Assembly (NCBI GenBank): GCA_000989515.1
Contig: LBOM01000003.1
Coordinates: 111,833-175,832, forward strand
Reading direction: 5' to 3'
DNA length: 64,000 bases
DNA from: Candidatus Nomurabacteria bacterium GW2011_GWE1_32_28
GTDB lineage: Bacteria > Patescibacteriota > Minisyncoccia > Phycocordibacterales > UBA9973
Part shown: in pieces, positions 1,408-44,244 of the stretch
How the letters are laid out: every line of letters starts with the position of its first letter
Position numbering within the stretch: position 1 is the first letter of the stretch
Made by a program: the position numbers and the translations under genes
Notes under the pieces: generated by a model
What the model was told of the DNA's origin: nothing
Seen by the model: only the letters and a program-made list of their open reading frames with translations
Database searches by the model: none

Positions 1408-3660
1408 TTATTTTTTCTCCAATCGTGTTTTTAATACAACTATCTCATCGCGAAGTATTGCGGCTGTCTCGAAATCTAGTTCTTTAACTGCTTTATTCAT
1501 TTCTTTCTCTTTCATTTTTATTATTTTTTCATAGACAATTTTATTTCTTTCTTCATCTGAAAGCATTGTATTTTTTATAGAATCTGACTCATTTTTCCCC
1601 TTATTACTTTTATCTTTTATGAATGCTTTTTTAAACAATTCAATATCTAATTGAAGTTCTGTATTTACAGCTTTTCCATGTTCGCTTTCCATTTCTTGTG
1701 TGATATCTTTTATTTTTTTTATTATCGTTTTTGGAGTGATTCCATGTTTTTTATTATAAGCAAGTTGAATATTACGACGTCGAACAGTCTCTTCTATCGC
1801 CCTCTCCATAGAACCAGTAACTATATCTGCATAAAGAATAACTTTACCTTCACTATTACGAGCTGCACGTCCAATGGTTTGTATCAATGCTGTGTCTGAA
1901 CGCAGAAATCCTTCTTTGTCAGCATCCAATATTCCTATCAATGCTACTTCAGGTAAATCAAGTCCTTCGCGAAGAAGATTTACCCCCACCAAAACATCAA
2001 ACTCTCCTTTTCTAAATTGTGTTAATATTTTTATTCTATCTATTGTTTTTACATCACTATGTAAATATTCTGCTTTAATTTTTTTTTCTTTTAGATAAAG
2101 AGACAAATCTTCTGCCATTTTTTTTGTAAGCGTAGTCGCCAAAACTCGAAAACCTTTTTTAATTGTTTTTTCTGCTTCTTTTATAAAATCCTGAATCTGA
2201 CCAGGAAAAGGCAAAGACTTTTCTTTTTGGGGTGTCTCGCAGACTGACGAGTCGAGAGGCAGCGCTGAGCGAGCACGCTCAGACAGCGACCCCAAAAAGG
2301 AAGATTCTTTGCCTTTTCCTAAAATCATTTTTTCTGAAATTGGACGAACTAAAATCTCAGGATCTATAAGCCCTGTCGGACGAATAATTTGTTCTACCAT
2401 TTGTTCACTTAATGTGCGCTCTTGTTCGCTTGGTGTAGCGCTAGTATAGATAACTGGCCCTATCTTTTTACTAAATTCTTCATATTTTAAAGGTCTATTA
2501 TCTTTAGCAGAAGGTAAACGAAAACCATATTCTACAAGAGTATTCTTGCGAGAAGCATCTCCTGCATACATTCCCTGAAGTTGCGGTAATGTCACATGTG
2601 ATTCATCTATGATAGTTAAAAAATCAGGTTCCCCTTCACCTGGTGACGGGGAAAAGTGTGGAAAATAAGATAATAATGTCTCTGGTGGCTCACCTTCTTT
2701 TTTGTCAGACAAATGACGAGAATAATTTTCTATACCATTACAATAACCAACTTCTTTTATCATCGCCAGGTCATAATTTGTTCTTCTTTTTATTCTCTCA
2801 GCTTCTAAGAGCTTTCCTTCTTTCTCAAATTTTTTTAATTGTTTTGTTAATTCTTTTTTTATTTCTATTAAAGCCTTTTTCTTTTTAACATCCTCAGTAA
2901 TAAAATGTTTTGTTGGAAAAATAAAAATTTCTTCTTCTTCTTTTATTATCTGCGAAGAAATAGGGTCAATTTTTTTTATTTCTGATATTTTATTATTTAA
3001 TATTTCTATCTGATACATTATAGTATCTGAAACTGGCATAAATTCAACACGAGAGCCAATAGATCGAAATTGTCCAGGACTTAGGTCTGCATTTGTACGC
3101 TCAAAATGAATTTCAATCAATTTTTTCATTAAAGTCATTCTATCTATCTTCCTTTTAATCTTTAATTTTAAATTAACCTTTTTATATTCTTCAGGGGAAC
3201 CCAAACCATAAATACAAGAAACAGACGCAACTATTATTACATCACGTCTTGTAAGTAGTGCAGCTGTAGTAGCATGACGTAGGCGATCTATCTCTTTATT
3301 TATTTGTGCATCTTTTTCAATATAAGTATCAGAAGCCGGCATGTAAGCTTCTGGTTGATAATAATCATAATAAGACACAAAATAATGTACAGCAGCACTT
3401 GGAAAAAATTCTCTAAATTCAGAAGCAAGCTGTGCTGCAAGAGTTTTATTATGTGCTATTACAAGAGTCGGTTTATTATATTTTGCTATTACATTAGCAA
3501 TAGTAAAAGTCTTACCGGTCCCTGTGGCACCTATCAATGTCTGTTTGCTCATCCCTTTTTTAAGTCCATCTAAAAGCTCTAAAATAGCCCTAGGTTGATC
3601 ACCTGCGGGCTGAAATGGATTGTGTAATTTAAAAATATTTTTTTCTTTTTTTTGAATCAT
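1408..3660 (-). CDS. uvrB: Excinuclease ABC subunit B
   Basis: 750 aa. N-terminus HNPFQPAGDQPRAILELLDGL...LIGATGTGKTFTIANVI plus helicase motifs and a C-terminal UvrB/UvrC interaction helix (ILRDEIVVLK). It contains a GC-rich in-frame insertion at 2224-2298. Confidence 0.95.
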   Translation of the reverse strand: MIQKKEKNIFKLHNPFQPAGDQPRAILELLDGLKKGMSKQTLIGATGTGKTFTIANVIAKYNKPTLVIAHNKTLAAQLASEFREFFPSAAVHYFVSYYDYYQPEAYMPASDTYIEKDAQINKEIDRLRHATTAALLTRRDVIIVASVSCIYGLGSPEEYKKVNLKLKIKRKIDRMTLMKKLIEIHFERTNADLSPGQFRSIGSRVEFMPVSDTIMYQIEILNNKISEIKKIDPISSQIIKEEEEIFIFPTKHFITEDVKKKKALIEIKKELTKQLKKFEKEGKLLEAERIKRRTNYDLAMIKEVGYCNGIENYSRHLSDKKEGEPPETLLSYFPHFSPSPGEGEPDFLTIIDESHVTLPQLQGMYAGDASRKNTLVEYGFRLPSAKDNRPLKYEEFSKKIGPVIYTSATPSEQERTLSEQMVEQIIRPTGLIDPEILVRPISEKMILGKGKESSFLGSLSERARSALPLDSSVCETPQKEKSLPFPGQIQDFIKEAEKTIKKGFRVLATTLTKKMAEDLSLYLKEKKIKAEYLHSDVKTIDRIKILTQFRKGEFDVLVGVNLLREGLDLPEVALIGILDADKEGFLRSDTALIQTIGRAARNSEGKVILYADIVTGSMERAIEETVRRRNIQLAYNKKHGITPKTIIKKIKDITQEMESEHGKAVNTELQLDIELFKKAFIKDKSNKGKNESDSIKNTMLSDEERNKIVYEKIIKMKEKEMNKAVKELDFETAAILRDEIVVLKTRLEKK
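2224..2298 (-). repeat. Family-B GC-rich palindromic element, in-frame in uvrB
   Basis: tttttggggtgtctcgcagactgacgagtcgagaggcagcgctgagcgagcacgctcagacagcgaccccaaaaa has 10-bp terminal inverted repeats TTTTTGGGGT/ACCCCAAAAA. The core matches the reverse complement of 43124-43188 inside uvrD. Confidence 0.7.
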
Positions 3661-3684
3661 ATCCGTAAAAAATATTTTAATTAT

Positions 3685-3810
3685 TTATTGAAGATAGAGA
3701 CCTTCATCGGGAAAACTATCATATGCTCTTACTACAATCATATAAGCAAAAAGGGAGGCTATTATTGTAAGAATAAGCATATACATTAATGATTTGTTAA
3801 GTAATGACAT
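3685..3810 (-). CDS. Possible 41-aa small hydrophobic protein upstream of uvrB
   Basis: ATG..TAA ORF translating to MSLLNKSLMYMLILTIIASLFAYMIVVRAYDSFPDEGLYLQ, which is TM-like. It is below the ORF-track size cutoff and has no homology support. Confidence 0.2.
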   Translation of the reverse strand: MSLLNKSLMYMLILTIIASLFAYMIVVRAYDSFPDEGLYLQ

Positions 3811-3929
3811 TGCTATTTTAGTCTATCATTTATTTGTTACATTGTTAATATTTTTTAAATTACCTTGATTTTTGGTACTTTTTATTATATATTTGAATTA
3901 TTCTGTTTTTTGTGTGAAAATAAAAAAAT

Positions 3930-3958
3930 GCGCCCGTAGTTCAGTTGTAGCGGATTCA
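3930..3958 (+). pseudogene. tRNA 5' fragment (acceptor + D-arm copy of tRNA-Lys) 45 nt upstream of the intact tRNA-Lys
   Basis: gcgcccgtagttcagttgtagcgg matches gcgcccgtagctcagctggtagagca at the 5' end, then diverges with no anticodon or T arm. Confidence 0.4.
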
Positions 3959-4002
3959 ACTAACTACTCACAAAATGTTATTATTGTGTATAAGTAAGAA
4001 AT

Positions 4003-4075
4003 GCGCCCGTAGCTCAGCTGGTAGAGCAGATCCCTTTTAAGGATAAGGTCCTCGGTTCGATCCCGAGCGGGCGCA
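4003..4075 (+). tRNA. tRNA-Lys (anticodon UUU)
   Basis: Cloverleaf: acceptor GCGCCCG/CGGGCGC, D-arm AGCTCAGCTGGTAGAGC, anticodon loop CTTTTAA, T-arm CTCGGTTCGATCCCGAG, discriminator A. No CCA is encoded. Confidence 0.85.
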
Positions 4076-4106
4076 CAGAATTAAGAGAGACCTACTATAT
4101 AAATTT

Positions 4107-4754
4107 TTAAAAAGCCTCAAGTAAAAACTGTTCAAAAACAGACTCAGCATCTTTTGCTTCTTTTCTTGCTTCAGGTAATAAATAAGAAATTTTTGATATA
4201 AATTCTACAAGCTCTCTTTCAGAAAATTTTTTAAAGTCTTTTTTAAGAATCATATCTTTAGCTTTCCAAAAAAGAATACCAACAAGTTCCTCCATTCCCA
4301 CACCAACATTTATCGCTTGTCTAAAATGAATCCATAAATTTAATTTATCTCTTTTTTCAAAATCATATGCTAATAAAAAATTATTATACTTCTCTTTCTT
4401 TTCTTTTGATAATTCAAAAATATTAATTTCTGCTTTATTTTTTTTAAAAACATCTAAAATAGGTTTGCTTAATTTACTTTCTAAAAAAACAAAATCATTA
4501 TTAGATTCACTCATTAAATCTAATTTACTTAAAACAAAACTCAATATATCTTCTCTTTCAAAAATATTTGTAAAAACAACAATGCACTTGGCAAAAAAAA
4601 GTCCTGCCCCAGAATAAAAACTTTCCACAGTCATTGATTCAAAATTATTTTTACCAATAAAAAAAACCTCCATGTCACCTGAAATAGATTTTAAAAAAAT
4701 ATCATACCCGTTATGTTTATTTTTGGCGTCATCACCACAAAAAAGATAAATCAT
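4107..4754 (-). CDS. holA: DNA polymerase III delta subunit-like (short)
   Basis: 215 aa. The MIYLFCGDD start and overall helical pattern resemble HolA. Weak similarity only. Confidence 0.45.
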   Translation of the reverse strand: MIYLFCGDDAKNKHNGYDIFLKSISGDMEVFFIGKNNFESMTVESFYSGAGLFFAKCIVVFTNIFEREDILSFVLSKLDLMSESNNDFVFLESKLSKPILDVFKKNKAEINIFELSKEKKEKYNNFLLAYDFEKRDKLNLWIHFRQAINVGVGMEELVGILFWKAKDMILKKDFKKFSERELVEFISKISYLLPEARKEAKDAESVFEQFLLEAF

Positions 4755-4755
4755 C

Positions 4756-5244
4756 TTAAAATTTAACTGCTTTTTTATACTCTATATATGAATCACCATA
4801 TTTAAGAGTTAAAACTTCTTCCTCTTTTTTTATAAAAACTAATTTAGTAACAACAAAAGAAATTACTGAAATAATAATTAAAAATAAAGCATTTGCTAAA
4901 ATCCCAAAACCAAACATTAAAAAGAAAAGTCCAAAATGTGTTGGGGTCCTAGTATAACGATAAGGTCCACAAAAAAACATTTCTTTTTTAGAATTATCTA
5001 CTTTTAATTTGTGAGAAGACTTTTGTGACCAAATTATTAAAAAAGTTCCAAAAACTAAAAACACAAAACCTGTCGAGAGAATGGCAAGATTTTCAAAAAC
5101 TATAAGTGGAAAGATAAAATCTAGCAAAAGACCCACTAAAAATGAAACGAAAAAAAACAAATAGGAGTGTACTAAAATTCTATGTACTCTATTTTTATGA
5201 ATACTAATGTTATTAAATTCTTCTACTTTGTCTTCTATGTCCAT
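4756..5244 (-). CDS. Isoprenylcysteine carboxyl / phospholipid methyltransferase-family membrane protein
   Basis: 162 aa, multiple TM helices, with motif GPYRYTRTPTHFG matching the ICMT/PEMT signature (GxYxxVRHPxY). Confidence 0.55.
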   Translation of the reverse strand: MDIEDKVEEFNNISIHKNRVHRILVHSYLFFFVSFLVGLLLDFIFPLIVFENLAILSTGFVFLVFGTFLIIWSQKSSHKLKVDNSKKEMFFCGPYRYTRTPTHFGLFFLMFGFGILANALFLIIISVISFVVTKLVFIKKEEEVLTLKYGDSYIEYKKAVKF

Positions 5245-5269
5245 ATAATAATTATATCACAAAAAACAG

Positions 5270-7762
5270 CTACTTAACTTCTCCAAAATTATTTCCAAAA
5301 CCAGAATGTACTATCAATGGAATGTCTGTTTTATATTGCAAATAAGATCTCTGAAGAACAGATTCCATTGCATTTTTAATAATTATCTCGACATTTTCAA
5401 GAATATCTTCTTCTACTTCATAAACTAATTCATCGTGTATCTGAAGAACAAGATGGGCTTTCTCTAAAAATCCTTCCCTCTTTAAATCTTCTTCAGAATA
5501 TCTTATCGCGAGTTTTATTATATCAGCAGTCGCTGTACCCTGAATTGGTGCATTGATGGCTGTGCGTTCAGCCATATTTTTTAAAAATGGAATTCTAGAA
5601 TTTATATTAGGAAAGTATCTTCTTCTATTAAACAATGTCTCTGTATATAAATGTCTTGTCGCAAAAATCTTTACACTTTCTAAATAATTTTTTACACCAG
5701 AAAATTGATTAAAATAATTATCATAAAATTTCTGTGCTTCTTCACGAGTACCACCTAAGCTCTTGCGTAAAGATGAAACACCCATACCATAAATAATTCC
5801 AAAATTTATTACTTTTGCCTTACGGCGCATCTCACCATCTACTTTTTCAAGTGGAACACCAAAAACAAAAGAAGCTACTCCAGAATGAATGTCTTTACCA
5901 TCACAAAATATTTGTGTCATTTTTGGGTCTCCCGAGAGCATAGCAGCGACACGAAGCTCTATTTGACTATAATCAAAAGTCAAAAGTTTATATCCTTTTC
6001 CTGCTATAAAACCATTTCGTATCTTTTTACCTAATTCTGTTTTAATAGGTAAATTTTGCAAATTTGGATCTTGAGAAGAAAATCTCCCCGTTGTTGTGCC
6101 GTTTTGTAAAAATTTTGCATGCAAACGATCATCTTCATCTGTCATTTTAGGAATTACATCAATATAAGTAGAAAGTAATTTCTGTAATTCTCTATAAGCT
6201 AATATTTCTTTTATTATTGGATTATTTTCTTCAAGTTCTTCTAATACAGAAACTTTTGTAGAAAAAGACCCACTCGCATTTTTCTTTTTGCTTGATTTCA
6301 TTCCCATTTTATCAAACAAAACTTCTCCTAATTGTTTTGGGGAATTTATGTTAAATTCTAAACCAGACATCTTATATATCTTTTGAGTTAATTTATCTAA
6401 TTCCTTGTGATACTCTTTTGATAAATTTTCAAAATATTTCTTATCTATCAGAATTCCATGGTCCTGCATTTTTTTTACCATGGGTATTATAGGTTTTTCT
6501 ATTTCTTTATATATTTTTTCTAATCCCTTATCTTTTAATTCTTTAAACACATATTCTTTTGCTATTTCAAAAGAATCAGTATTTGCATAATGCAAAACAT
6601 CATCTAGTGTTGGATTTGTAATATCTGAATTTATAATCCAAAGTGCAATTGCTGTTTCTTGTAATTTGTTTTTATCTATAATAATTGGCTTTTGGTGGAC
6701 GTGCTCAGAGGAGTATTCGCTACTACCAGATAAATCTTGCCCTTCCAAGATAGAGTGCGAACGACGGCGAGCATCGTCGCCAGAAGCCAAATTATTATTT
6801 TCATCAAAAAAACTTTTTAATCTTGAATATAGACTTCTAAATTCAAACACTGAAAACATATTTTCAATTTTTTTCAAATCTGCATTCTCCCAAAAAGTTT
6901 TTTCTTGTAATTTAAAATCAACAGGTGCATCAGTTCTTATTTTTGCTAATGTTTTTGAAAATAAAGCTTCTTCTTCGTTATCTTTCAAAAGTTGTATTAT
7001 ACGATCTGTAAGTCCTAATTTTTTAAATTCTAATTCGTAATTCGTAATTCGTAATTGTCTATAAATTTCTTCTATTGTTCCAAAATTAACAATCAAATTC
7101 GTCGCCGTCTTCTCACCAATTCCTTTAATACCAATAATATTATCAGATGGATCTCCTCTCAATCCTTTATAGTCTGGCAACAACTTCGGTTTAAAACCAA
7201 ACCTATCAATCATTTTTTCTTCATCATATAAAATAGTGTCATTAATCCCCTTCTTTAAAGTATAAACTTGTACTTTTTTACCATCAACTAATTGCATCGT
7301 GTCCATATCTCCTGATGCAATAATTATATTTATATCTGGAATTTTTTTTCCGCCAGAGGCGGATCCGCCTCTGGCGGAAATTTTCTCTACAATCGTACCT
7401 AATACATCATCAGCCTCAAAGCCTGGCGCATCATAAATAGGAATATTAAATGCATCAAAGATTTGTCGAGAGTTTTTTAGTTGTAAAATTAAAGCATCTT
7501 CAGTTTTTGCTCTCCCTAATTTATACCCATCGTATGCTTCATGCCTAAAAGTCTTTTGCGGTAAATCATAACAAGCAACAATATAATCTGGTTTTAGATC
7601 AGTAATTATTTTCATTAACATACTAGAAAGACCATACAATGCCCCAGTAGGCTCACCCTTAGAAGACAAAAACTCAGGCAATGCATGATAAGCACGATGT
7701 ATTATCGCATGAGCATCTAATAATACTAATGTTTTTGATAAATTTTTATTATTTTTGACCAT
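5270..7762 (-). CDS. polA: DNA polymerase I (5'-3' exonuclease plus polymerase domains; 3'-5' exo domain reduced)
   Basis: 830 aa. N-terminal 5' nuclease (LVLLDAHAIIHRAYHAL...) and C-terminal pol motifs (DYSQIELR, RRKAKVINFGIIYGM, QIHDELVYEV). It carries three foreign in-frame segments: a perfect palindrome at 7347-7380, a family-A element at 6705-6775 and a heptad repeat at 7026-7057. Confidence 0.95.
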   Translation of the reverse strand: MVKNNKNLSKTLVLLDAHAIIHRAYHALPEFLSSKGEPTGALYGLSSMLMKIITDLKPDYIVACYDLPQKTFRHEAYDGYKLGRAKTEDALILQLKNSRQIFDAFNIPIYDAPGFEADDVLGTIVEKISARGGSASGGKKIPDINIIIASGDMDTMQLVDGKKVQVYTLKKGINDTILYDEEKMIDRFGFKPKLLPDYKGLRGDPSDNIIGIKGIGEKTATNLIVNFGTIEEIYRQLRITNYELEFKKLGLTDRIIQLLKDNEEEALFSKTLAKIRTDAPVDFKLQEKTFWENADLKKIENMFSVFEFRSLYSRLKSFFDENNNLASGDDARRRSHSILEGQDLSGSSEYSSEHVHQKPIIIDKNKLQETAIALWIINSDITNPTLDDVLHYANTDSFEIAKEYVFKELKDKGLEKIYKEIEKPIIPMVKKMQDHGILIDKKYFENLSKEYHKELDKLTQKIYKMSGLEFNINSPKQLGEVLFDKMGMKSSKKKNASGSFSTKVSVLEELEENNPIIKEILAYRELQKLLSTYIDVIPKMTDEDDRLHAKFLQNGTTTGRFSSQDPNLQNLPIKTELGKKIRNGFIAGKGYKLLTFDYSQIELRVAAMLSGDPKMTQIFCDGKDIHSGVASFVFGVPLEKVDGEMRRKAKVINFGIIYGMGVSSLRKSLGGTREEAQKFYDNYFNQFSGVKNYLESVKIFATRHLYTETLFNRRRYFPNINSRIPFLKNMAERTAINAPIQGTATADIIKLAIRYSEEDLKREGFLEKAHLVLQIHDELVYEVEEDILENVEIIIKNAMESVLQRSYLQYKTDIPLIVHSGFGNNFGEVK
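6705..6775 (-). repeat. Family-A GC-rich inserted element, in-frame in polA (encodes ...[25 protein letters not shown]...)
   Basis: Near-identical to 435-500 (uvrA), in the same orientation relative to the coding strand. Confidence 0.7.
7026..7057 (-). repeat. (AATTCGT)n heptad tandem repeat, in-frame in polA (encodes LRITNYELEF)
   Basis: aattctaattcgtaattcgtaattcgtaattg. It belongs to the dispersed heptad family seen in intergenic regions and other genes across the window. Confidence 0.8.
7347..7380 (-). repeat. 34-bp perfect GC-rich palindrome inside polA (encodes ISARGGSASGGKKI)
   Basis: TTTCCGCCAGAGGCGGATCCGCCTCTGGCGGAAA is a perfect inverted repeat centred on GGATCC. Confidence 0.8.
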
Positions 7763-11898: not shown

Positions 11899-12438
11899 AT
11901 GTCAGGACATAATAAATGGTCACAAATAAAACACAAAAAGGGCATCACAGATGCGAAAAAGAGTAAAATTTTTTCTAAACTTGTGCGTTTTATATCAGTA
12001 GAAGCAAAGCTTGCAAGCGGAGATGTAAATGCACCAGGACTTAGAGCTGCAATAGAAAAAGCCAAAAAAGTAAATATGCCTTCTGAAAACATAGAAAGAG
12101 CAATAAAGAAAGCCTCAGAAACAGGAGCACAAATGGAGTCTATTGTATACGAAACTTATGGGCCAGGAGGTGTTGGTATTATAATTGAAACATTAACAGA
12201 CAGTAGAAACAGAACAGCTCAAGACATAAAGCACATCCTGAGTAAAAATAATTTTATGCTCGGTGGAATAGGATCAGTAGCCTGGTCTTTTACTAAAGAA
12301 AAAACAGAAGAAGGAATATTGTGGAAACCAAATATGTTTATATCAATTTCTGATGATGATTTGGTGTTATTAGATAAACTTGTAGAAGAACTAGAAGAAA
12401 ATGATGATGTGCAAGATATCTACACAAATGCAGAATAG
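11899..12438 (+). CDS. yebC: YebC/PmpR-family transcriptional regulator (short form)
   Basis: MSGHNKWSQIKHKKG...KIFSKL at the N-terminus is diagnostic for YebC. Confidence 0.85.
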   Translation: MSGHNKWSQIKHKKGITDAKKSKIFSKLVRFISVEAKLASGDVNAPGLRAAIEKAKKVNMPSENIERAIKKASETGAQMESIVYETYGPGGVGIIIETLTDSRNRTAQDIKHILSKNNFMLGGIGSVAWSFTKEKTEEGILWKPNMFISISDDDLVLLDKLVEELEENDDVQDIYTNAE

Positions 12439-12443
12439 GAACA

Positions 12444-12476
12444 ATTACGAATTATCAATTACGAATTACGAATTTA
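12444..12476. repeat. Heptad repeat (AATTACG orientation) between yebC and ruvC
   Basis: caattacgaattatcaattacgaattacgaatt followed by TAAAATATAC and the ruvC ATG 11 nt later. Confidence 0.8.
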
Positions 12477-21228: not shown

Positions 21229-21277
21229 TTAACAATTTCAAATTATGAATTATAAATTTAGAAATGTATTTGTATTT

Positions 21278-21312: not shown

Positions 21313-21334
21313 ATCAATTTTCGTATAGAATAAG

Positions 21335-26596: not shown

Positions 26597-26606
26597 TTAT
26601 ATATTA

Positions 26607-33272: not shown

Positions 33273-33310
33273 TTTGTTTCTAACTTTTTTCCTTCTCTAT
33301 TTATTTACTT

Positions 33311-33356
33311 TCTGTATTTTAAATTCGTAATTCGTAATTGTTAATTCGTAATTGAC
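33311..33356. repeat. Heptad element with conserved flank TTCTGTATTTTAAATTCGTAATTCGTAATTGTTAATTCGTAATTGAC
   Basis: The 50-nt string is identical to 34236-34282 and closely related to 40769-40800, 26556-26596 and 25441-25470. It lies ~45 nt upstream (gene sense) of the 30741-33272 start. Confidence 0.85.
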
Positions 33357-34183
33357 TTACCTTTTTTCTTCTCCAAGAAGTTATCTTTTGTAACCACTGA
33401 ATGTCCTAACCTTTTTTCTAATTTTTTACGTGCTCCACCAGCTATATTTCCTCCTGCTTTTGCATCAGATTTTAATTTTGAAATTCCTTTGGAATGCTCT
33501 TTCTTGTGTATTTCTGTCGTTGCTGTTTCAGCAAGCATATTTAACACAAGTTCAAGATTCGTCATATTATCTCTCAGACTTTGTTTTTTTAATTCTTTAA
33601 GATTTTTATATTCTTTTGTCGTGAGTCCTGCCCAAGCCTTCGTGATCTCATCTGTTAGTATAGCAAATTCTTTGCCTTCCTTTACTCCACGGTTTTCCCA
33701 TTCATCAGTTAATGATTTTCGGATTTCAATACTTTTTAATCTTTGATTTATCCAGTTTTGACTATATCCTTTTTGTAGATATGTTTTTAACGCACGATTT
33801 ATAGAAAGCTCTGGGTCTGCTGTTTCTTCTAATCTCTCATAGCCTACACGAGCAAGCCAGAGTTTAAATGGTTCAGCTTTTGGTGATGGAATAGATTGAA
33901 TTAAACGGAACATTACTTCTGTGTCAGCTACATCAGTAATATAATATTTACCATCTGATGCTTGCATTTTCAGATGGTGACATTTTGTCACCATCTCACT
34001 ACCTTCGTCACGAAGTCTTTGAGCTAGCTTGTTCCAGTATTTTCTTGCATCAATACTTTCTGTTAAAACTTTAACTACATCAACAACCGAAAAATACCAT
34101 AATTCTTTTTCAGCATCCCAGTGTCTGCGAATTTCTTTGTTGTCAAAAATTGCTATTTTATTTTTTGTATTTTTCTTTTGCAT
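33341..34183 (-). CDS. Bro-N / DinD-family protein (phage antirepressor-like, DNA-damage-inducible protein D family)
   Basis: 280 aa. N-terminal Bro-N pattern KIAIFDNKEIRRHWDAEKELWYFSVVDVVKVLTES. The C-terminal half parallels E. coli DinD. Paralog of 62223-63065. Confidence 0.65.
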   Translation of the reverse strand: MQKKNTKNKIAIFDNKEIRRHWDAEKELWYFSVVDVVKVLTESIDARKYWNKLAQRLRDEGSEMVTKCHHLKMQASDGKYYITDVADTEVMFRLIQSIPSPKAEPFKLWLARVGYERLEETADPELSINRALKTYLQKGYSQNWINQRLKSIEIRKSLTDEWENRGVKEGKEFAILTDEITKAWAGLTTKEYKNLKELKKQSLRDNMTNLELVLNMLAETATTEIHKKEHSKGISKLKSDAKAGGNIAGGARKKLEKRLGHSVVTKDNFLEKKKGKSITN

Positions 34184-34235
34184 TTTACTTTCTAACTTTA
34201 TAAACTTTATGACTTTCTACTCTCTCCTGTTCTTT

Positions 34236-34282
34236 TTCTGTATTTTAAATTCGTAATTCGTAATTGTTAATTCGTAATTGAC
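34236..34282. repeat. Heptad element (identical copy of 33311-33356)
   Basis: ttctgtattttaaattcgtaattcgtaattgttaattcgtaattgactta. Confidence 0.85.
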
Positions 34283-36712
34283 TTATCGTTTTTTGAAGTA
34301 GTATTCGTAATCAGAAGCATCTTTGAGTATCGTAGATGTGTTTCTTATGTCTATAATCTTATCATAATAATATTCATACACTGTTAATTTATTTCCAATG
34401 AGCTGGAGCTGATATGCTGCCACGTCTGGTTCACTTACACGTATTTCTCTACCGTCTTCAGTGACATAACCAAACATCCTTGCAATTTGATCTGATAGAT
34501 ACCATGCAAAATTTTGTAAATCTGTGCCTTCTTCATAGCCATATAATTTAGCGAATTCTTTGTCTGCCATTATTTGTCTTGTAAAAACTGTTTCTATTCC
34601 TTCATGATATCGCACAACATCACCTTCTCGTGGAGTCACTTTTTGTCCCAATGTAAGAGGTGTTGTATTTATTATACCAGTATTGTTTGTATTATTATTT
34701 CCAGTATTGTTTGTATTGTTGCCGGTTACTCCAGGGATCCAAACACCAGCTACCCATGTTCCAGGAGTCCAAGCATCGTCTACCCAAGATACTGGAGTCC
34801 AAGCACCATCCATCCAAGCTGTAGGAATCCATGTATTGTTTTCCCAAATCTCAGCAATCCATGTACCATTTTCCCAAGATCCATTAGTCCATCCATCGTC
34901 TCCAGTCCAGTCTGTGTCTCCGTTGGTATCAACATAAATATATGCATTGCCACTTGCTGTTCCCTTGTCTCCATTACAAGATACAGAAAAAGATGTTGAA
35001 GATGCAGGACGAACTCTTTGTTGTCCATTTAGACCAACAGAGATTCCATCAAATTTACAAGAAGTAGTGTTTTCAGATGACCAAGTTATCGTTGCTGGGC
35101 CATCTTTTTCTGATAGATAATAAGAGTCTGCTGTTACTCTGACCTTGGGTAATGATTTATAATAATCATCTTCGCCATCTCCACCCTCTCCTTCTCCGCT
35201 AGTATTAACATAAACATATGCATTAGCACTTGCTGTTCCGTTAGGGCCACTACATGTTATTGAATAAGAAGTAGATGATGTAGGTTGAACAATCGCTGGT
35301 TTTCCTGCGCTATTTGTTGCTACTGTATTTTTTACTTCTTTATCTCCAAAAGAACAGGAAGTGGTGTTTGTTGATGTCCAATTTATTGTTGAAGAATCAC
35401 CAGGAGAAATTGTATAAGGATTTGCTGAAAGGATTACTGTAGGGAAAATATTATTATAGATACAAAAAGTTTTTGATTCATTTAAAATATATGGAGGAGT
35501 ACATGTAGGAGTATATCCATAACTATCACACGTAGGATAATTAATAGCACCATTTGTACAATAATCCCAACCAGTACCATTATCACTTCCATCACCCCAA
35601 TTAGAGCCATCGTCTCCTCCATAAGGAGTATTCTTCGGTGCAGCTTTTGTTGTGAAACTAAAAGTAGAACCAGTAATTTTTACAGTATCTTCTCCTGTCG
35701 CCATAAAAATATATTTTGTAGATGGTCTTAATCCTGATAATGAAAAACTTATATTTCCATAAATATTACTACGGTTACCTATGGTGTAAGATTTTTCTCC
35801 GACATCCTTCCAAGAGGGAGCTACTTCTTTAAATGCATATATTTCAGTATATGGTCTATCTTCTTTATATCGGAAATAAGTTTTTAGGTCCTTAACGGAA
35901 TTATAAGAACCATTTAATTTTGCGGACGTTGAAGTTATTTGTGTCGCATCTTTTGTTTCAATTATTGTTTTTAATGGGGCTGTGCGGAAGTCTTTTACTA
36001 TACTGTCTCCACCATAGGCTATATTATTCTTATTAGAAATAATTGCACAATAATAATAAGTAGTATCTGGTATTAAGTTTTCAATTTCTTGAGAAAAAGT
36101 CTGTTCTCCTGTAATTAATTTTAAAAATAAATCTTTTGTTGATTTCATTTTTGTTCCATAGATATCATTACAAAAAATAGGGGCTATTTTTTCTTTTGAA
36201 TATCTAAAATATGCAGTAATTGGGAGTGTTGGATTTGTAGTAGTATAGCCACCCTTTCCCCATAATCTTGCGGTAGTTTGTGTTACCTCATCTGCACCTA
36301 TTGTTTGTATGGAGAGCTTAGAAGTATCTGAAGGAGAAGATACTGGTATATTTTTTACATTTATTGTTATTGTTCTTGGTCCTACTTCTACTTCTGTATT
36401 TCTTTCTTCGTCATACCCATAACAATTAAGTGTGTATACACTTTCTTTTTCATTTGGGGTAACTACTAAATTTCCACTTCCACTTAATGACGACGTATCA
36501 TTTATTTTACAAGATGTTGAATAGTCAGATGAAGACGAAGACCAAGAAAGAGTGACTGACTCTCCATTGTTTATTGAGTAAGAAGAAGCTACAAAGTTAT
36601 TTATATAAAGAAAAAAGGTGTTGTATTCTTGTTGTGCAGAAACATTGTTTATATAAAATGCACTTAAAATAAATATGAATATTATTAGAATTTTTAGTAT
36701 GTTTTTTTTCAT
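34283..36712 (-). CDS. Large secreted repeat protein (Ig/FN-like modules, Trp-rich tandem repeats)
   Basis: 809 aa with a signal peptide. Repeated Cys-containing modules (YTLNCYGYDEE / YSITCSGPNGTASANAYVYV / FSVSCNGDKGTASGNAYIYV) and a W-rich tract WIAEIWENNTWIPTAWMDGAWTPVSWVDDAWTPGTWVAGVWIPG. Confidence 0.55.
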   Translation of the reverse strand: MKKNILKILIIFIFILSAFYINNVSAQQEYNTFFLYINNFVASSYSINNGESVTLSWSSSSSDYSTSCKINDTSSLSGSGNLVVTPNEKESVYTLNCYGYDEERNTEVEVGPRTITINVKNIPVSSPSDTSKLSIQTIGADEVTQTTARLWGKGGYTTTNPTLPITAYFRYSKEKIAPIFCNDIYGTKMKSTKDLFLKLITGEQTFSQEIENLIPDTTYYYCAIISNKNNIAYGGDSIVKDFRTAPLKTIIETKDATQITSTSAKLNGSYNSVKDLKTYFRYKEDRPYTEIYAFKEVAPSWKDVGEKSYTIGNRSNIYGNISFSLSGLRPSTKYIFMATGEDTVKITGSTFSFTTKAAPKNTPYGGDDGSNWGDGSDNGTGWDYCTNGAINYPTCDSYGYTPTCTPPYILNESKTFCIYNNIFPTVILSANPYTISPGDSSTINWTSTNTTSCSFGDKEVKNTVATNSAGKPAIVQPTSSTSYSITCSGPNGTASANAYVYVNTSGEGEGGDGEDDYYKSLPKVRVTADSYYLSEKDGPATITWSSENTTSCKFDGISVGLNGQQRVRPASSTSFSVSCNGDKGTASGNAYIYVDTNGDTDWTGDDGWTNGSWENGTWIAEIWENNTWIPTAWMDGAWTPVSWVDDAWTPGTWVAGVWIPGVTGNNTNNTGNNNTNNTGIINTTPLTLGQKVTPREGDVVRYHEGIETVFTRQIMADKEFAKLYGYEEGTDLQNFAWYLSDQIARMFGYVTEDGREIRVSEPDVAAYQLQLIGNKLTVYEYYYDKIIDIRNTSTILKDASDYEYYFKKR

Positions 36713-40800: not shown

Positions 40801-40801
40801 C

Positions 40802-41194: not shown

Positions 41195-41226
41195 GTATAT
41201 ATTATAACAATATTAAAAGAACAGTG

Positions 41227-42174
41227 CTACTCTTTTTTGTTGATATCTATGATTTTTGTGAGATTGATCCAATCTGAGAGAGTTAAATTTTCTGCTCTTT
41301 TGTTTCCAAGAGATTCTAACTTAATCATCGAGTCAAGGGCGGAGGCAATTCCTCCGCCCTTGAGAAATGTTTTTAAATTTGAGGAGAGTTTTTTTCTTTT
41401 ATGGGCAAAGCCAGTATGTATTATTTCCCAAAATTTCTCTTCATTTAGTTTATTTTTGATAAAAATTTTTCTTGAGATGTTTTTTATAGCGATTATTGCG
41501 GAATCTACCTTTGGGGCAGGAGAAAAATACCTTGAAGGCACCTTCATAATTATTTTAGGGCTCCCATATGCCTTTACTGATATGGATAAAATACTTTCCT
41601 TGCCGTCGCGTGCGACTATTCTCTTTGCTACTTCGTTTTGTACCATCAAGATCATCATCTCTGGTTGTTCTTTTTCTGAAAGAAACTTTTTCAATATGGC
41701 ACCAGTTATATTATAGGGAATATTAGCGATAATTTTATAAGAAAAATAATGAGGAATATTATTTTTAAAACCACACATATTTCCCTGCTGGGAAATTGCT
41801 ATGCTCGGCTCGACAGCCTGCGCAATGCTTTTAAAAACAACATTCCTCATTATTTTTCTAATTTGTAATTTGTAATTTGTAATTTGTAATTTTAGTATGT
41901 CATCATTTATTAAAATTAATTTCTGGTTTTTTATTTCTTCAGAGAATTTAATTTTTAGAAGTTCATAAAGTTCGTAGTCTTTTTCTATGGCTACAACACA
42001 GCCTGCTTTTTCTAAAAGTTTTTCTGTTAAGGCACCCTTTCCGGGTCCTATTTCTAGTATAATATCTCGAGAAGAAACTTCTCCAGCCTCTACTATTTTT
42101 TTTAATGCGATAGTAGATTTTAAGAAATTTTGACCTAATGATTTTTTTGCTTTGTGTATTTTCTGCATTTTCAA
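41227..42174 (-). CDS. rsmA: 16S rRNA (adenine1518/1519-N6)-dimethyltransferase
   Basis: SLGQNFL...ILEIGPGKGALTEKL... is the KsgA family signature. It has two foreign in-frame segments: a palindrome at 41333-41363 (encodes LKGGGIASAL) and an (AATTTGT)n repeat at 41858-41892 (encodes LKLQITNYKLQI). Confidence 0.9.
   Translation of the reverse strand: MKMQKIHKAKKSLGQNFLKSTIALKKIVEAGEVSSRDIILEIGPGKGALTEKLLEKAGCVVAIEKDYELYELLKIKFSEEIKNQKLILINDDILKLQITNYKLQIRKIMRNVVFKSIAQAVEPSIAISQQGNMCGFKNNIPHYFSYKIIANIPYNITGAILKKFLSEKEQPEMMILMVQNEVAKRIVARDGKESILSISVKAYGSPKIIMKVPSRYFSPAPKVDSAIIAIKNISRKIFIKNKLNEEKFWEIIHTGFAHKRKKLSSNLKTFLKGGGIASALDSMIKLESLGNKRAENLTLSDWINLTKIIDINKKE
41333..41363 (-). repeat. 31-bp GC-rich palindrome inside ksgA
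   Basis: TCAAGGGCGGAGG-CAATT-CCTCCGCCCTTGA is a perfect 13-bp inverted repeat. Confidence 0.8.
41858..41892 (-). repeat. (AATTTGT)5 heptad tandem repeat, in-frame in ksgA
   Basis: ctaatttgtaatttgtaatttgtaatttgtaatttt. Confidence 0.8.
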
Positions 42175-42206
42175 TTCGTAATTCGTAATTCGTAATTGTT
42201 AATTTG
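42173..42206. repeat. Heptad repeat between uvrD end and ksgA start
   Basis: caattcgtaattcgtaattcgtaattgttaatttg begins immediately after the ksgA start codon. Confidence 0.8.
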
Positions 42207-42210
42207 TAGT

Positions 42211-44244
42211 TTATATATAAATTGTTTTTATTCCTCCTTCCTCACCTTCTTTCTCTAGTATATCACTTGGAATATCTGAAATAAATTCAGATGGAGCATT
42301 TATTTGTCTAGAGCCAAATATTGTACGGAAATTTGCAAATGATAAAAATAATTTTTCACGAGCTCTTGTGATTGCTACGTAAAAAAGTCTACGTTCTTCT
42401 TCTTTGTCTTCTCCATTTTTACTCTCATTATTTCTTCTGTGTGGAAAAAGTCCATCTTCTAATCCTGTAGTAAAAATATATTTAAATTCAAGACCTTTTG
42501 ATGCATGCACTGTCATTAATTTGACAGCATTTGTTTCTGTTTTTTTATTTTCAGCAATCATCATTGAGTCTTGATCTGAGGCTAATGACGCATCTTCTAA
42601 AAGTTTCTCTATTCCCAATCCGTCCTTTGAATTATCATATTTTAGAGCCAATGTTACTAATTCTTTTATGTTTTCTAATCTTTCCATGTCTTCTTCTGTG
42701 CCGGTTGAAAGCTCCGTCTCTATTCCAGATTTTTTTACTGCGAACCTAATGACTTCAGATGCTTTTGAACTTTTAATTTTTTCTTTTATTTCTTCTAATA
42801 TTTTATAAAAATTATCTATCTTTATTTTTACTTTTATTGGTAGATTTTCCTTTTCTCCAGAAAAAAGTTTTATCAATGTTACTTTCCCTATTCCCCTAAC
42901 AGGGAAATTTATTATTCTTTTTATTTCAGAAAGACTTTCAGGATTTAGTGCGCAACGTAAATAAGCGAGAGTATCTTTTATTTCTTTTCTTTCAAAAAAT
43001 TTAACACCCAAAACTTGGTATGGAATATTGTATCGTAGCAATGCTTCTTCTAGAGCGCGGGATTGAAAATTTGCACGATAGAGGATGGCAACGTCAGACA
43101 AAATTATGGATGCTACCTTAGAAGGGTCGCTGTCTAGGTCTGTTGACCTAGCGCTGCCTCTCGGCTCGTCAGCCTGCGAGACACCCTTCAAAGGTACATC
43201 CGTAATTTTGTCTAAAAGTTCTAAAATTTTTGTTGCGACGAAATCAGCTTCATCATTTTCATCTAATGCTTCATATAGTCCTATCTTCTCTCCAGTTTTA
43301 TTTTTGGTAAATAAATTTTTATCAGGCCTGTATACATTCTTTTTTATTACCTCATTTGCTGCCTCTAATATGTTTTGAGTTGATCTATAATTCTCTTCAA
43401 GTAATATTATTTTTGTTTCTTTTCCATAATCTTTTTCAAAACTTAAAATATTTTTTAAATTTGCTCCACGCCAAGAATAAATATTTTGATCGGCATCTCC
43501 AACTACACAAATATTTTTATTTTTTTCAGAAAGCAAACGTGACATCAAATATTGTACTTCATTTGTGTCTTGATATTCATCTATGTGTATGTATTCCCAT
43601 TTTTCTTGATAGATTTTTCTTATTTCTTCTTTTTCTTTTAATAGTTTTGTTGCTTTTAAAAGTAGATCATCAAAATCTAAAGAATTCTCTTTAGCTTTTT
43701 TCTTTTCATATAGGGCCCAGACTTGAGCTACTAGTTTACTTAAATAGTCATACACTTTTTCCTCATAATCTTTTAAATGTGTGAATTTACCTTTTTCTCT
43801 ACTTATTATATTTTTTATTTTTCTAGGATCATATTGTTTTGGATCTATTCCTAATTCTTTTAGTGATTCTTTGATCAATGTAGTGGAATCAGAATCATCT
43901 AATATTGTAAAATGTCTAGTAAGACCCAAAATATGGGCATTTTCTTTGATTATATAGACTCCTAGTGAGTGAAAAGTAGACACAAAAGGAACAGAATCTT
44001 GACCTTTTATATGTTTTTTTATTTCTGAAATTATTCGTTCACGCATTTCTTTTGCTGCCTTGTTTGTGAATGTCACAGCTAAGATTTTATCTGGAGATAT
44101 TCCATTTTTAATTAAATTCAATATTCTATGTGTTATTGTCTTCGTTTTTCCTGCACCAGCTCCAGCGACAATCAAAATAGGACCATTCATATGAATGGCA
44201 GCTTCTCTTTGCATAGCATTTAGTCCTTTTAAGTGTTCTTCCAT
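42211..44244 (-). CDS. uvrD: UvrD/PcrA-family ATP-dependent DNA helicase
   Basis: LNAMQREAAIHMNGPILIVAGAGAGKTKTITHRI... with helicase motifs I-VI. The start is taken at MEEHLKG (ATG 44242-44244) immediately after TATAAT. The ORF-track start is at 44268. It has a family-B GC-rich insertion at 43124-43188. Confidence 0.9.
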   Translation of the reverse strand: MEEHLKGLNAMQREAAIHMNGPILIVAGAGAGKTKTITHRILNLIKNGISPDKILAVTFTNKAAKEMRERIISEIKKHIKGQDSVPFVSTFHSLGVYIIKENAHILGLTRHFTILDDSDSTTLIKESLKELGIDPKQYDPRKIKNIISREKGKFTHLKDYEEKVYDYLSKLVAQVWALYEKKKAKENSLDFDDLLLKATKLLKEKEEIRKIYQEKWEYIHIDEYQDTNEVQYLMSRLLSEKNKNICVVGDADQNIYSWRGANLKNILSFEKDYGKETKIILLEENYRSTQNILEAANEVIKKNVYRPDKNLFTKNKTGEKIGLYEALDENDEADFVATKILELLDKITDVPLKGVSQADEPRGSARSTDLDSDPSKVASIILSDVAILYRANFQSRALEEALLRYNIPYQVLGVKFFERKEIKDTLAYLRCALNPESLSEIKRIINFPVRGIGKVTLIKLFSGEKENLPIKVKIKIDNFYKILEEIKEKIKSSKASEVIRFAVKKSGIETELSTGTEEDMERLENIKELVTLALKYDNSKDGLGIEKLLEDASLASDQDSMMIAENKKTETNAVKLMTVHASKGLEFKYIFTTGLEDGLFPHRRNNESKNGEDKEEERRLFYVAITRAREKLFLSFANFRTIFGSRQINAPSEFISDIPSDILEKEGEEGGIKTIYI
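43124..43188 (-). repeat. Family-B GC-rich element, in-frame in uvrD (encodes ...ADEPRGSARSTDLDSDPSK...)
   Basis: gggtcgctgtctaggtctgttgacctagcgctgcctctcggctcgtcagcctgcgagacaccc matches the reverse complement of the uvrB insertion at 2224-2298, apart from the internal mini-hairpin. Confidence 0.7.

Follow-up and report, generated by a model that had tools for sequence, protein, structure and literature searches.

In-frame palindromic "selfish DNA" within essential genes has so far been regarded largely as a Rickettsia curiosity, accompanied by scattered intragenic REPs. RPE-1 to RPE-10 (Ogata et al. 2000, as summarised in PMC10969869) are described as palindromes of about 100-150 nt that fall into several families in a small AT-rich genome, and both RPEs and REPs lie within uvrA, uvrB, uvrD and polA in phyla other than the one considered here (PMC10969869, PMC3733652). 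GTAG- and CGTC-tagged REPs (Di Nocera et al. 2013, PMC3733652) are 20-40 nt long and carry a CCA tail as well as a terminal tag, GTAG or CGTC, that stays unpaired. They are located inside uvrA, uvrB, uvrD/rep, polA and recBCD of several phyla and as dimers fold into larger structures; CGTC REPs have no dedicated transposase, while some REPs are accompanied by RAYT transposases. MITEs such as Correia, ERIC, Nezha and the Coxiella QMITE are non-autonomous, multi-copy hairpins that are sometimes fused in frame to ORFs (PMC5896051).

The window analysed here is a 64-kb stretch of about 30% GC from Candidatus Nomurabacteria GW2011_GWE1_32_28, a tiny groundwater bacterium. It contains three copies of one GC-rich hairpin element of about 118 bases, termed family B, that are read in frame within uvrB, uvrD/pcrA and a third gene, which we take to be ksgA/rsmA on account of conserved KsgA motifs (Table 1).

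Table 1. Host genes and family B elements in the window (positions within the window)
Feature	Position	Strand	Basis and remarks
uvrB host gene, 750 aa	1408..3660	-	100% match to UvrB of Candidatus Nomurabacteria GW2011_GWE1_32_28; PDB UvrB E=3e-224
Family B element in uvrB, whole hairpin	2203..2320	-	core 2229-2293; fold, covariance model, ortholog comparison
ksgA/rsmA host gene (presumed name)	41227..42174	-	translation; orthologs adjoin uvrD in 13 loci
Diverged family-B-like element in ksgA	41740..41859	+	inverted-repeat search, fold, covariance model
uvrD/pcrA host gene	42211..44268	-	probable start ATG at 44244; translation; PDB PcrA E=5e-152
Family B element in uvrD/pcrA, whole hairpin	43096..43213	+	core 43124-43186; fold, covariance model, empty sites in relatives

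A sequence-only reading of the window had described the uvrB segment as flanked by 10-bp inverted repeats, and TTTTTGGGGT (2224-2233) and ACCCCAAAAA (2289-2298) are indeed present; the palindrome is real but was drawn too small, with inverted repeats that reach 25-31 bp per side. That the uvrD segment (43124-43186) is the reverse complement of the uvrB segment, an internal mini-hairpin excepted, was borne out by a repeat search pairing 2223-2303 with 43113-43193 as an 81-nt inverted repeat of 77% complementarity, and relative to its host gene the uvrD copy is oriented opposite to the uvrB copy. The 19-mer CTCGRCYCGWCAGYCTGCG occurs at exactly three sites in the window, 2238-2256(-), 41804-41822(+) and 43160-43178(+), where shuffles expect 0.00. 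The ksgA segment had rightly been called a relative, but it is a full-length diverged copy of the same architecture rather than a partial one, with an outer stem of 31 bp (AAAATAATGAGGAAT.../...ATTCCTCATTATTTT). A covariance model scores the uvrB copy at 101.9 bits (2223-2299(-)), the uvrD copy at 96.6 bits (43117-43193(+)) and the ksgA copy at 35.6 bits (41762-41837(+), E=5e-7), the best E-values among the window copies being 1e-23 to 1e-24.

On the plus strand, the uvrB copy carries hairpin A as GACT-GACG-AGTC (2242-2253) and hairpin B as GAGCG-AGCA-CGCTC (2267-2280). The uvrD copy has hairpin B as AGGTC-TGTT-GACCT (43136-43149) and hairpin A as GGCT-CGTC-AGCC (43163-43174), and the ksgA copy ATTTCCC-TGCT-GGGAAAT and GGCT-CGAC-AGCC for hairpins B and A, respectively. 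Folding of the element, which had been proposed along with the sequence-only reading, gave z-scores of -6.5 to -10.8 on both strands for the three copies: -62 to -68 kcal/mol and z -6.5/-7.4 for uvrB, -63.6/-65.1 kcal/mol and z -10 for uvrD, and z -8.4/-10.8 for ksgA. The uvrB and uvrD segments both lie within intact ORFs that yield the peptides quoted earlier, ..GKGKESSFLGSLSERARSALPLDSSVCETPQKEKSLPFP.. for the uvrB copy in the "S" orientation and ..DVPLKGVSQADEPRGSARSTDLDSDPSKVAS.. for the uvrD copy, and the stretches spanning the inserts encode SALPLDSSVCETPQK in UvrB and GVSQADEPR in UvrD; translation itself, taken for granted in that reading, we infer from the constraints on frame and length described below.

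Across copies, a 25-31 bp outer stem of varying sequence is capped by a conserved, Y-shaped core of about 65 nt that consists of a three-way junction and two mini-hairpins with the loops GACG and AGCA on one strand (median hairpin 112 nt with 24 outer pairs, n=108 copies). In an alignment of 94 distinct copies, the paired fraction of cells is 94.4% versus 79.6% in shuffles, and the covariation score of 0.36 versus 0.097 was reached by none of 500 shuffles. Hairpin B, noted before only as "different" between two copies, is in fact a hypervariable yet always paired stem of 5 bp with a conserved TGCT loop: 53 stem variants are found in the 94 copies, all four Watson-Crick types occur at each of its five pairs, and at pair 40-66, 64 copies have GC and 27 have CG. 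Covariation in hairpin A was also seen in copies collected without the search pattern, which score 23-99 bits. Conservation among the copies of AT-rich genomes is confined to the centre; the arms diverge to 50% identity with pairing kept. Mismatches in the arms are unevenly distributed on one strand, whichever strand is the mRNA (A.C 131 vs G.T 50; Y.Y 211 vs R.R 41), counts that are not phylogenetically independent and for which mutation bias could be an alternative source. Family B had been called an independent family, which holds only in part, because other families at the same sites, although otherwise unrelated, have its Y architecture and its loop motifs GACG and (C)AGCA(G).

A pattern scan recovered at least 118 further copies in other genomes, at no fewer than 14 sites in housekeeping genes (10 representatives Pfam-scanned), which supports the proposal of a repeated GC-rich palindromic family residing in frame within ORFs. 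The host genes include UvrA/B/D, PolA, Tgt, TsaD, Fmt, Def and aminoacyl-tRNA synthetases, with an enrichment in informational and repair genes. The titles of these loci are of Patescibacteria type or unclassified, apart from one mislabelled or mis-binned record, and none is from Rickettsia; the GC content of the element-bearing organisms ranges from 31 to 62%. Relatives with higher GC carry the element as a repeat dispersed over intergenic DNA, and within single such genomes units of 133-223 nt are 92-99% identical at different non-coding places, arms included, showing recent multi-copy spread.

Comparison with orthologs reveals the element as an insertion. UvrB residues 442-483 have no counterpart in the solved UvrB structure, and the segment is missing from three orthologs, one of them a close relative with 82% identity; residues 448-482 have an AlphaFold pLDDT below 50 in a model of only moderate quality (mean pLDDT 62.7), which predicts a disordered loop. 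Solved PcrA has 6 residues where the window UvrD has about 37, and UvrD relatives have 30-36 nt at the site versus 111 or more in the window, with two loci empty. The ksgA site is empty in seven orthologs and occupied by different families in others. One AT-decayed copy of the element was also found. The segment is thus absent from close orthologs, as the idea of a lineage-specific insertion had it, but the family spans Patescibacteria instead of being confined to this genome; a lack of other copies and a segment shared with orthologs, both named beforehand as speaking against the reading, were each contradicted. Single protein loops are either empty or hold family B in either orientation or one of up to seven other families. 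Both orientations occur at the Fmt, TsaD, Tgt, UvrD and UvrB sites, and the arms travel with the core. Neither the comparison of filled with empty uvrB sites nor the ends of recent copies revealed a recognisable target-site duplication.

The constraint on frame and length is strict. Although five core frames are open, the 85 copies in long ORFs use frames S1 and A2 only, whose peptides read GSLS..ALPLGSSACETP or GVSQADEPRGSA..DSDP. All 60 UvrD loci have a site length divisible by three, no in-ORF copy contains a stop in its reading frame, and this frame is open in 98-100% of copies, as is the frame produced by a flip in 88-100%. The left arm is one nucleotide longer in 49 of 71 in-ORF copies compared with 4 of 24 non-coding ones.

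We regard family B as a non-autonomous, hairpin-dependent mobile repeat of the RPE or intragenic-REP kind, its translation product being a disordered loop, a reading to which we assign a probability of roughly 60%. The Y core would be the functional unit on a long outer stem, recognised by a putative trans-acting enzyme, probably as folded single-stranded DNA of one strand, that copies or moves the element. In the gene-dense, AT-rich Nomurabacteria, copies would survive where they hit surface loops of housekeeping proteins that tolerate them, provided that their length is divisible by three and their frame encodes a disordered peptide rich in Gly/Ser/Pro/Asp, and would therefore be translated through. 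After insertion, the arms may evolve in concert by arm-to-arm conversion, and the whole palindrome may be replaced by its own reverse complement, a flip on which the permitted frames would interconvert because the arms differ by one nucleotide in length. The lack of a recognisable target-site duplication speaks against this reading, as do arms that, unlike those of a classical MITE, vary between copies in AT-rich genomes.

The element might instead benefit its host. Some conserved factor of Patescibacteria would bind the Y core or read it as a signal, for instance in organising the nucleoid, replication or repair, or in controlling translation or decay at the mRNA level; with hardly any intergenic space in these genomes, purifying selection would keep copies inside essential genes. 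The core is 93% identical across 18 orthologous copies at the UvrD site, a value partly fixed by how the copies were found, where codon positions 1 and 2 of the conserved coding region alongside reach 88.7% and position 3 only 48.5%; such conservation agrees with long-term purifying selection, and hence with a possible host function, no less well than with selfish turnover. Arms that stay paired at 50% identity, loops recurring in unrelated families and the preference for informational and repair genes point the same way. Close relatives, however, are polymorphic for presence and absence, unrelated families replace the element, decayed copies exist and some genomes show bursts of near-identical non-coding copies. 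Moreover, core conservation is inflated by pattern ascertainment, pattern-free copies score 23-99 bits, and both orientations at one site make an mRNA-sense function unlikely, so that we consider a host-beneficial module rather unlikely overall.

Removal from the RNA or bypassing, for instance by stem cleavage and religation, would leave the host proteins without the peptide, and the very stable stem (-60 to -68 kcal/mol) does juxtapose the exon ends. CPR rRNA genes reportedly carry insertions that are missing from the mature rRNA (Brown et al. 2015). Such removal would lift any coding constraint, though, and is improbable given the use of only two of six frames, the site lengths divisible by three in 60 of 60 loci, the open reading and flip frames, and the lack of any Rfam ribozyme or intron match. 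Restriction to two frames with conserved peptides could also reflect a functional protein module under protein-level selection that is spread by recombination. We hold this to be very improbable, as a single site may hold, according to orientation, one or the other of two unrelated peptides, or else peptides of unrelated families or nothing at all, while core synonymous positions are conserved, the stems covary at the nucleotide level, the peptides belong to no Pfam or NCBIfam family and the loop is predicted to be disordered. All sequences stem from metagenome assemblies, but chance resemblance or an assembly or binning artefact is practically negligible, being excluded by the zero matches expected in shuffles, by the covariance-model E-values and by independent assemblies from many studies and sites that place the element at orthologous positions.

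Returning to the mobile repeat, the finding reveals a rich superfamily of such elements, distinct in structure, across Patescibacteria (Candidate Phyla Radiation), a very large and uncultivated share of bacterial diversity. It explains many puzzling length differences and low-complexity loops in CPR orthologs and thereby affects their annotation, alignments and phylogenies. The roughly 100 copies, conserved at the centre, with covarying stems, in both orientations and strict as to frame, offer an unusually clean data set for studying the movement of hairpin repeats that have no known transposase and the concerted evolution of palindrome arms. The conserved core also predicts a conserved partner protein that should be findable by phylogenetic profiling. 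We tentatively entertain, at well below even odds, that the core with its GACG and AGCA loops is the recognition module of an undescribed Patescibacteria-wide system acting on folded single-stranded DNA, with the palindromes in essential genes under purifying selection; such a system might be a host factor or a novel mechanism of hairpin-guided mobilisation or flip-flop, and the palindromes could then form an "ambisense-coding" superfamily in which flips give two alternative protein loops per site.

Family B was not met with in the literature searched. Against Rfam 15, only tRNAs in the window reach the gathering threshold, and E-value scans of the three copies turn up nothing beyond weak matches to generic hairpins (miRNA), far below gathering scores. 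The T-shaped inverted terminal repeats of AAV, viral telomeres with a long stem and two small hairpins in two orientations (flip/flop), and the attC sites of integrons, with conserved structure and R/L boxes, variable stem sequence, extra-helical bases and use of one strand, resemble family B in form only; their defining sequence motifs are missing from it, and they may serve as analogies for a possible mechanism, not as evidence of membership. Yeast mitochondrial GC clusters are likewise GC-rich, palindromic, mobile and polymorphic in a very AT-rich genome and sometimes in frame (var1), but they are organellar, shorter and unrelated in sequence. With MITEs, family B shares a non-autonomous, hairpin-forming and multi-copy nature, and copies in higher-GC Patescibacteria match over their whole length; the defining features of MITEs, however, are conserved terminal inverted repeats and target-site duplications, whereas terminal conservation in family B is found within higher-GC genomes (92-99%) and not across copies in AT-rich genomes. 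REPs are likewise GC-rich imperfect palindromes with strand-asymmetric features, yet the family B unit of about 112 nt, with a three-way junction in a core of about 65 nt plus arms, is no 20-40 nt stem-loop with a terminal tag: in the 94-copy alignment CGTC is the loop of hairpin A, and GTAG is absent. From RPEs, family B differs in its unrelated sequence and phylum, its GC-rich Y core with conserved centre and paired but non-conserved arms, the sharing of one protein loop by up to eight families and both orientations, and hosts of 31-62% GC; judged on peptide models and record titles, no homology is apparent, as searches with the insert peptides return no model from NCBIfam or Pfam at E<=10 and no title is from Rickettsia. 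In kind, the RPEs are nonetheless close: family B is a palindrome in their size range (median 112 nt) with several copies per genome (3 in 64 kb), lies in frame in housekeeping genes and is absent from orthologs. As far as the summary of RPEs goes, both have no known transposase, occur in non-coding DNA as well, and sit in frame in unrelated housekeeping genes, where they are presumed to be translated at tolerant sites.

The window has a GC content of 25–36 %, and a search for 40-nt stretches of at least 60 % GC singled out tRNAs, a few coding stretches rich in Gly/Ala and, within ORFs, a set of short GC-rich islands, among them the three copies of the hairpin element family B in uvrB, uvrD/pcrA and ksgA. 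What an earlier sequence-only reading had stated about these three genes was borne out on re-reading the sequence: the uvrB and uvrD copies, described there as reverse complements, were recovered by a repeat search as an 81-nt inverted repeat with 77 % complementarity, while all three copies lie inside intact ORFs and yield the quoted peptides on conceptual translation; the translated inserts include SALPLDSSVCETPQK in UvrB and GVSQADEPR and STDLDSDPSK in UvrD. The 19-mer CTCGRCYCGWCAGYCTGCG is present once each in uvrB, ksgA and uvrD, giving three occurrences in the window where dinucleotide shuffles expect 0.00. The elements exceed the extent originally assigned, as an additional inverted repeat of 25–31 bp, different in sequence in each copy, flanks the core on each side. 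On folding, the three hairpins reach −44 to −68 kcal/mol (z −6.5 to −10.8 versus shuffles, either strand) and share one layout, in which a three-way junction bearing two mini-hairpins sits on top of a long outer stem. Hairpin A reads GRCT-GACG-AGYC on one strand, and hairpin B has a variable stem of 5–7 bp with the loop AGCA on the strand carrying the GACG of hairpin A and TGCT on the other. A covariance model trained on copies of other genomes and the two strong window copies (uvrB, uvrD) matched the window exactly three times, scoring 101.9 bits for uvrB, 96.6 bits for uvrD and 35.6 bits (E=5e-7) for ksgA. The ksgA copy, previously taken for a partial relative, is therefore indeed related, but as a complete, diverged member; it has a B-type hairpin A and a hairpin B close to that of the element at locus L053.

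Positions of family-B copies and other features in the window
Feature	Position	Strand	Remark
Family B in uvrB, whole hairpin	2203-2320
Family B in uvrD, whole hairpin	43096-43213
Family B in ksgA, whole hairpin	41740-41859
uvrB/uvrD inverted repeat	2223-2303 and 43113-43193
uvrB host ORF	1408-3660	minus	100 % identical to UvrB of Candidatus Nomurabacteria bacterium GW2011_GWE1_32_28 (Candidate Phyla Radiation / Patescibacteria)
RRRSH(S/T) family in uvrA	428-503
RRRSH(S/T) family in polA	6699-6774
RRRSH(S/T) family in CCA-adding enzyme gene	50833-50873
Perfect GC-rich palindrome in polA	7347-7380		ccgccagaggcggatccgcctctggcgg, read as SARGGSASGGK
Perfect GC-rich palindrome in ksgA 3' part	41333-41363		caagggcggaggcaattcctccgcccttg, read as KGGGIASAL
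Small palindromic insert in uvrB	~2640-2662	minus	ccccgtcaccaggtgaagggg, peptide SPSPGEGE
Tandem AATTCGT heptamers	7012-7070, 12435-12472, 21266-21324, 25437-25495, 26550-26608, 33309-33367, 34235-34293, 42160-42232, 57613-57650		ACGAATT on the other strand
Heptamer variant AATTTGT x4 in ksgA	41852-41880		in frame
GC skew sign change	~48000-50000
tRNA gene cluster	48649-48836, 49637-49912

Conservation of the structure was assessed in an ungapped alignment of 94 distinct copies. Standard pairs fill 94.4 % of the cells of the proposed Y structure as compared with 79.6 % in shuffles, and the covariation score of 0.36 (0.097 shuffled) was reached by none of 500 shuffles; slid controls pair at 32–51 %. 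Columns 42–64 were fixed by the DNA-pattern ascertainment of the first set and are uninformative either way. All four Watson–Crick types are found at each of the five pairs of hairpin B, whose 53 stem variants enclose a constant TGCT loop, and the junction pair 40–66 is G-C in 64 copies and C-G in 27. Hairpin A shows a G-C to A-T change at pair 48–57, and copies gathered by protein similarity add further compensated stems (GGCC..GGCC, GGTC..GACC) around a constant CGTC loop. The finding is real and beyond chance. A hammerhead or other small ribozyme, considered because CUGACGAG in the core resembles the hammerhead CUGANGA box, was ruled out: the next stem is not followed by GAAA, the position of the box is inside a hairpin instead of at a junction, and Rfam gave no match.

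When one genome per species was scanned with an exact pattern, the matches listed amounted to at least 118 family-B loci, with the consensus core GGGGTCGCTGTCT-(5 bp, TGCT, 5 bp)-AGCGCTGCCTCTCGGCTCGTCAGCCTGCGAGACACCCC and a median whole hairpin of 112 nt with 24 outer base pairs. Among the matches listed, locus GC ranges from 31 to 62 % and all titles but one are of Patescibacteria type or unclassified, namely Nomurabacteria, Paceibacterota, Kaiserbacteria, Zambryskiibacteriota, Moraniibacteriota, Minisyncoccia and Parcubacteria, besides automated 'Saccharibacteria' labels and plain 'bacterium'. The exception, a contig of a Burkholderiales-labelled MAG (JAMPXW010000003.1, locus L104), is probably mis-binned, because the locus has 32 % GC and a Nomurabacteria-like fmt carrying the element. 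A phage vector was rejected, the three viral contig matches to a looser pattern being chance hits in DNA of 60–65 % GC without extended similarity. Kaiserbacteria MFLU01 holds four copies with 133–223 nt in common at 92–98 % identity, and CAYVZB01 holds four copies (L037, L045, L056, L113), 96–99 % identical, of a composite unit of ~135–145 nt that joins the Y element to the perfect 20-nt palindrome AATACAAATGCATTTGTATT. As these near-identical copies each occupy a different, apparently non-coding place, family B behaves as a dispersed repeat that recently multiplied in some lineages.

Although five of the six frames of the core are open, no more than two of them are used by 85 of the 91 copies assigned to long ORFs: 49 are in sense orientation (frame S1, peptide GSLSxxAxxALPLGSSACETP) and 36 in antisense orientation (frame A2, peptide GVSQADEPRGSAxxxxxDSDP). 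This choice is far from chance, given three and two open frames for the respective orientations; the remaining six are GC-rich loci (47–62 % GC), where chance long open frames arise. The used frames encode Gly/Ser/Pro/Asp-rich peptides, the unused ones Arg/Cys/Leu-rich peptides. This pattern argues for translation of the element by read-through and against its removal from the RNA. At least 14 different host sites carry in-ORF copies, located in Tgt (two), UvrD (two), TsaD, Fmt, Def, UvrB, the CCA-adding enzyme, a class I aminoacyl-tRNA synthetase of IleRS/ValRS type, a LeuRS-type anticodon-binding domain, a RecG-like helicase, an RluA-type pseudouridine synthase and a prenyltransferase-like repeat protein. 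Hosts were identified by Pfam scan for ten representatives, by the 100 % match and structures for UvrB and by PcrA structures for UvrD, while host alignments served to locate the second site in Tgt and in UvrD.

That the UvrB, UvrD and KsgA segments are insertions was confirmed by empty sites in orthologs and solved structures. Solved UvrB structures align to residues 4–441 and 484–655 of the window protein with contiguous chain numbering, so residues 442–483 are without counterpart; an AlphaFold model of moderate quality (mean pLDDT 62.7) gives residues 448–482 a pLDDT of 33–36 and no secondary structure. In 120 UvrB orthologs (75–87 % identical), the site lies between VRPVSE and YPGQIQDF and holds nothing (e.g. 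P0008, P0012), family B, reversed family B (VSQADEPRGSA in P0017) or an unrelated insert of at least four families. In L122, one of the empty alleles, the DNA runs gaaaaa-ggaaactataaa-ggccag in place of the 126-nt segment of the window, and comparison of these two alleles revealed no clean target duplication. At the UvrD site, PcrA has 6 residues in its solved structure and the window protein ~37. Among 60 UvrD loci gathered by protein similarity, this site measures 30–36 nt in all distant relatives and 33–258 nt, always a multiple of three, in close relatives, where at least eight families occur. Five loci (L124, L130, L137, L167, L174) bear two inserts each; in L129 and the four in which two families are identifiable (L124, L130, L137, L167), the fold consists of separate side-by-side hairpins with their own arms. 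Insertion of a new element into the tip of an older palindrome, whose arms would become the outer stem, was therefore rejected, as elements sharing a site adjoin without nesting. An AT-decayed copy at the UvrD site, L127:1144-1220 (KDISQTDKPRNITPKIDEDGNLNQ, 23 bits with the covariance model), shows that copies can erode in place. Seven KsgA orthologs have nothing at the corresponding site, and four carry members of two other families there. At TsaD and UvrD the outer arm ends overlap conserved host codons, which is suggestive of arms that may have arisen by inverted duplication of flanking host sequence.

The same genes and sites receive other palindromic families. Another GC-rich family read in frame (ATCTTGCCCTTCCAAGATAGWGTGCGAACGACGGCGAG, peptide RRRSH(S/T)...) has site-specific palindromic arms, and orthologs carry it at the UvrB site more often than any other insert; its copy in the CCA enzyme of the window lies where L012 has family B, and on inspection the outer arms of the two appear homologous. 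Two further families with ERTLGRSGDGDGQRKFSAENFRGESEN and LEKRLGSATARARGIFQQKNIR peptides share the Y layout of family B, with GACG-looped and CAGCAG-looped hairpins. At least seven families beyond family B reside in a single protein loop at UvrD site 1 (L123–L202), with peptides including ERTLGRSGDGDGQRKFSAENFRGESEN, LEKRLGSATARARGIFQQKNIR, GLAGxGTRRTEDL, NFSSLRPSPEYRGGTLGKLK, SPLExYS..STPSRKRATPQEGN and FSQVLGSPRPS..ARPAHSK, and some have GACG and CAGCAG loops as in family B. In a sequence sample drawn without any pattern, the tetraloops most often borne by GC-rich 5-bp stems were AGCA/TGCT (12 of 104), and the most frequent non-AT hexaloop was CAGCAG. Within the window (including 1-7762 and 41227-44268), palindromic inserts are present in uvrA, uvrB, polA, uvrD, ksgA and cca; the small uvrB insert corresponds to a 10-residue gap against solved UvrB and to low pLDDT at residues 337–344. 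Tandem AATTCGT heptamers of 2–4 units, which may be a promoter or 5'-leader motif, stand in short spacers just upstream of many start codons, and a variant adjoins the hairpin in ksgA, where L110 has AATTACG x3 at the corresponding place. The GC skew changes sign beside the tRNA gene cluster, possibly marking a replication origin or terminus.

Both orientations occur at one site across genomes in Tgt, UvrD, TsaD, Fmt and UvrB. In Fmt, the outer peptides SGKD...SLPD are identical in both orientations and the imperfect arms move with the core, so that one allele is the in-place reverse complement of the other. Plain inversion of a symmetric palindrome was rejected as it would bring the core into the sole frame with a TGA stop; without the 1-nt difference between the arms the flip would not work. 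In 49 of 71 in-ORF copies, as against 4 of 24 non-coding ones, the left arm (on the GGGGTCGC side) exceeds the right by 1 nt, and by our arithmetic this offset turns frame S1 into A2 upon flipping. Consistent with this link, the frame that a flip would bring into use is open in 88 % of the copies in sense and 100 % of those in antisense orientation, compared with 29–70 % for other frames.

Arms vary among host sites and even among genomes at one site, while pairing is kept within each copy. In 18 UvrD-site copies, mean pairwise identity is ~50 % for each arm and 93 % for the core without the hairpin-B stem, a value partly fixed by ascertainment, as compared with 48.5 % at third and 88.7 % at first and second codon positions of the adjacent conserved coding region; copies gathered without a pattern score 23–99 bits with the covariance model. 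The arms would thus appear to evolve in concert through arm-to-arm conversion, and the core would be under strong sequence constraint, due either to a conserved partner or to its being renewed continually from intact copies. Arm mismatches on the GGGGTCGC strand, in counts that are not phylogenetically independent, are skewed to A.C over G.T (131 versus 50) and to pyrimidine–pyrimidine over purine–purine (211 versus 41). The complementary strand, with GACG and AGCA loops, would therefore fold better. The asymmetry is alike whether the GGGGTCGC strand is mRNA, mRNA complement or non-coding, and it points to a single-stranded form of one fixed element strand rather than to host mRNA; a mutation bias is an alternative source of the same skew.

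Overall, the interpretation of the sequence-only reading is supported, and we consider family B a non-autonomous, hairpin-dependent mobile repeat, tolerated in protein loops and translated there, with a probability of roughly 0.6. Its main rival, a structured module maintained by the host, shares the compensated stems and the constrained core; set beside empty and eroded alleles and the multiplied non-coding copies, we regard it as unlikely.

Rfam gave no match for the element with gathering scores or permissive E-value scans, nor did Pfam and NCBIfam for the insert peptides, and in the full-text literature searched no account of elements of this kind was found for CPR, Patescibacteria, Parcubacteria or Nomurabacteria. 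The nearest kinds are the Rickettsia palindromic elements (RPEs), palindromic repeats of ~150 bp that lie in frame and form ten families (PMC10969869), and the GTAG/CGTC-tagged REPs described inside uvrA, uvrB, uvrD/rep, polA and recBCD of several phyla, whose CGTC class is without known transposase (Di Nocera et al., PMC3733652). The inserts in repair and replication genes of the window echo these REPs inside excision-repair and replication genes. Family B, however, shows no homology to RPE models; CGTC forms a loop in it whereas that of REPs is a terminal tag, and its unit is ~3 times longer than a REP, with a three-way junction. As regards the hallmarks of MITEs, no target duplication was recognisable, and the termini differ between copies in AT-rich genomes but are shared within higher-GC genomes. 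As the defining sequence features of RPEs and REPs are missing, we place family B outside every named family and file it as a new form of a known kind, the 'in-frame palindromic repeats'.
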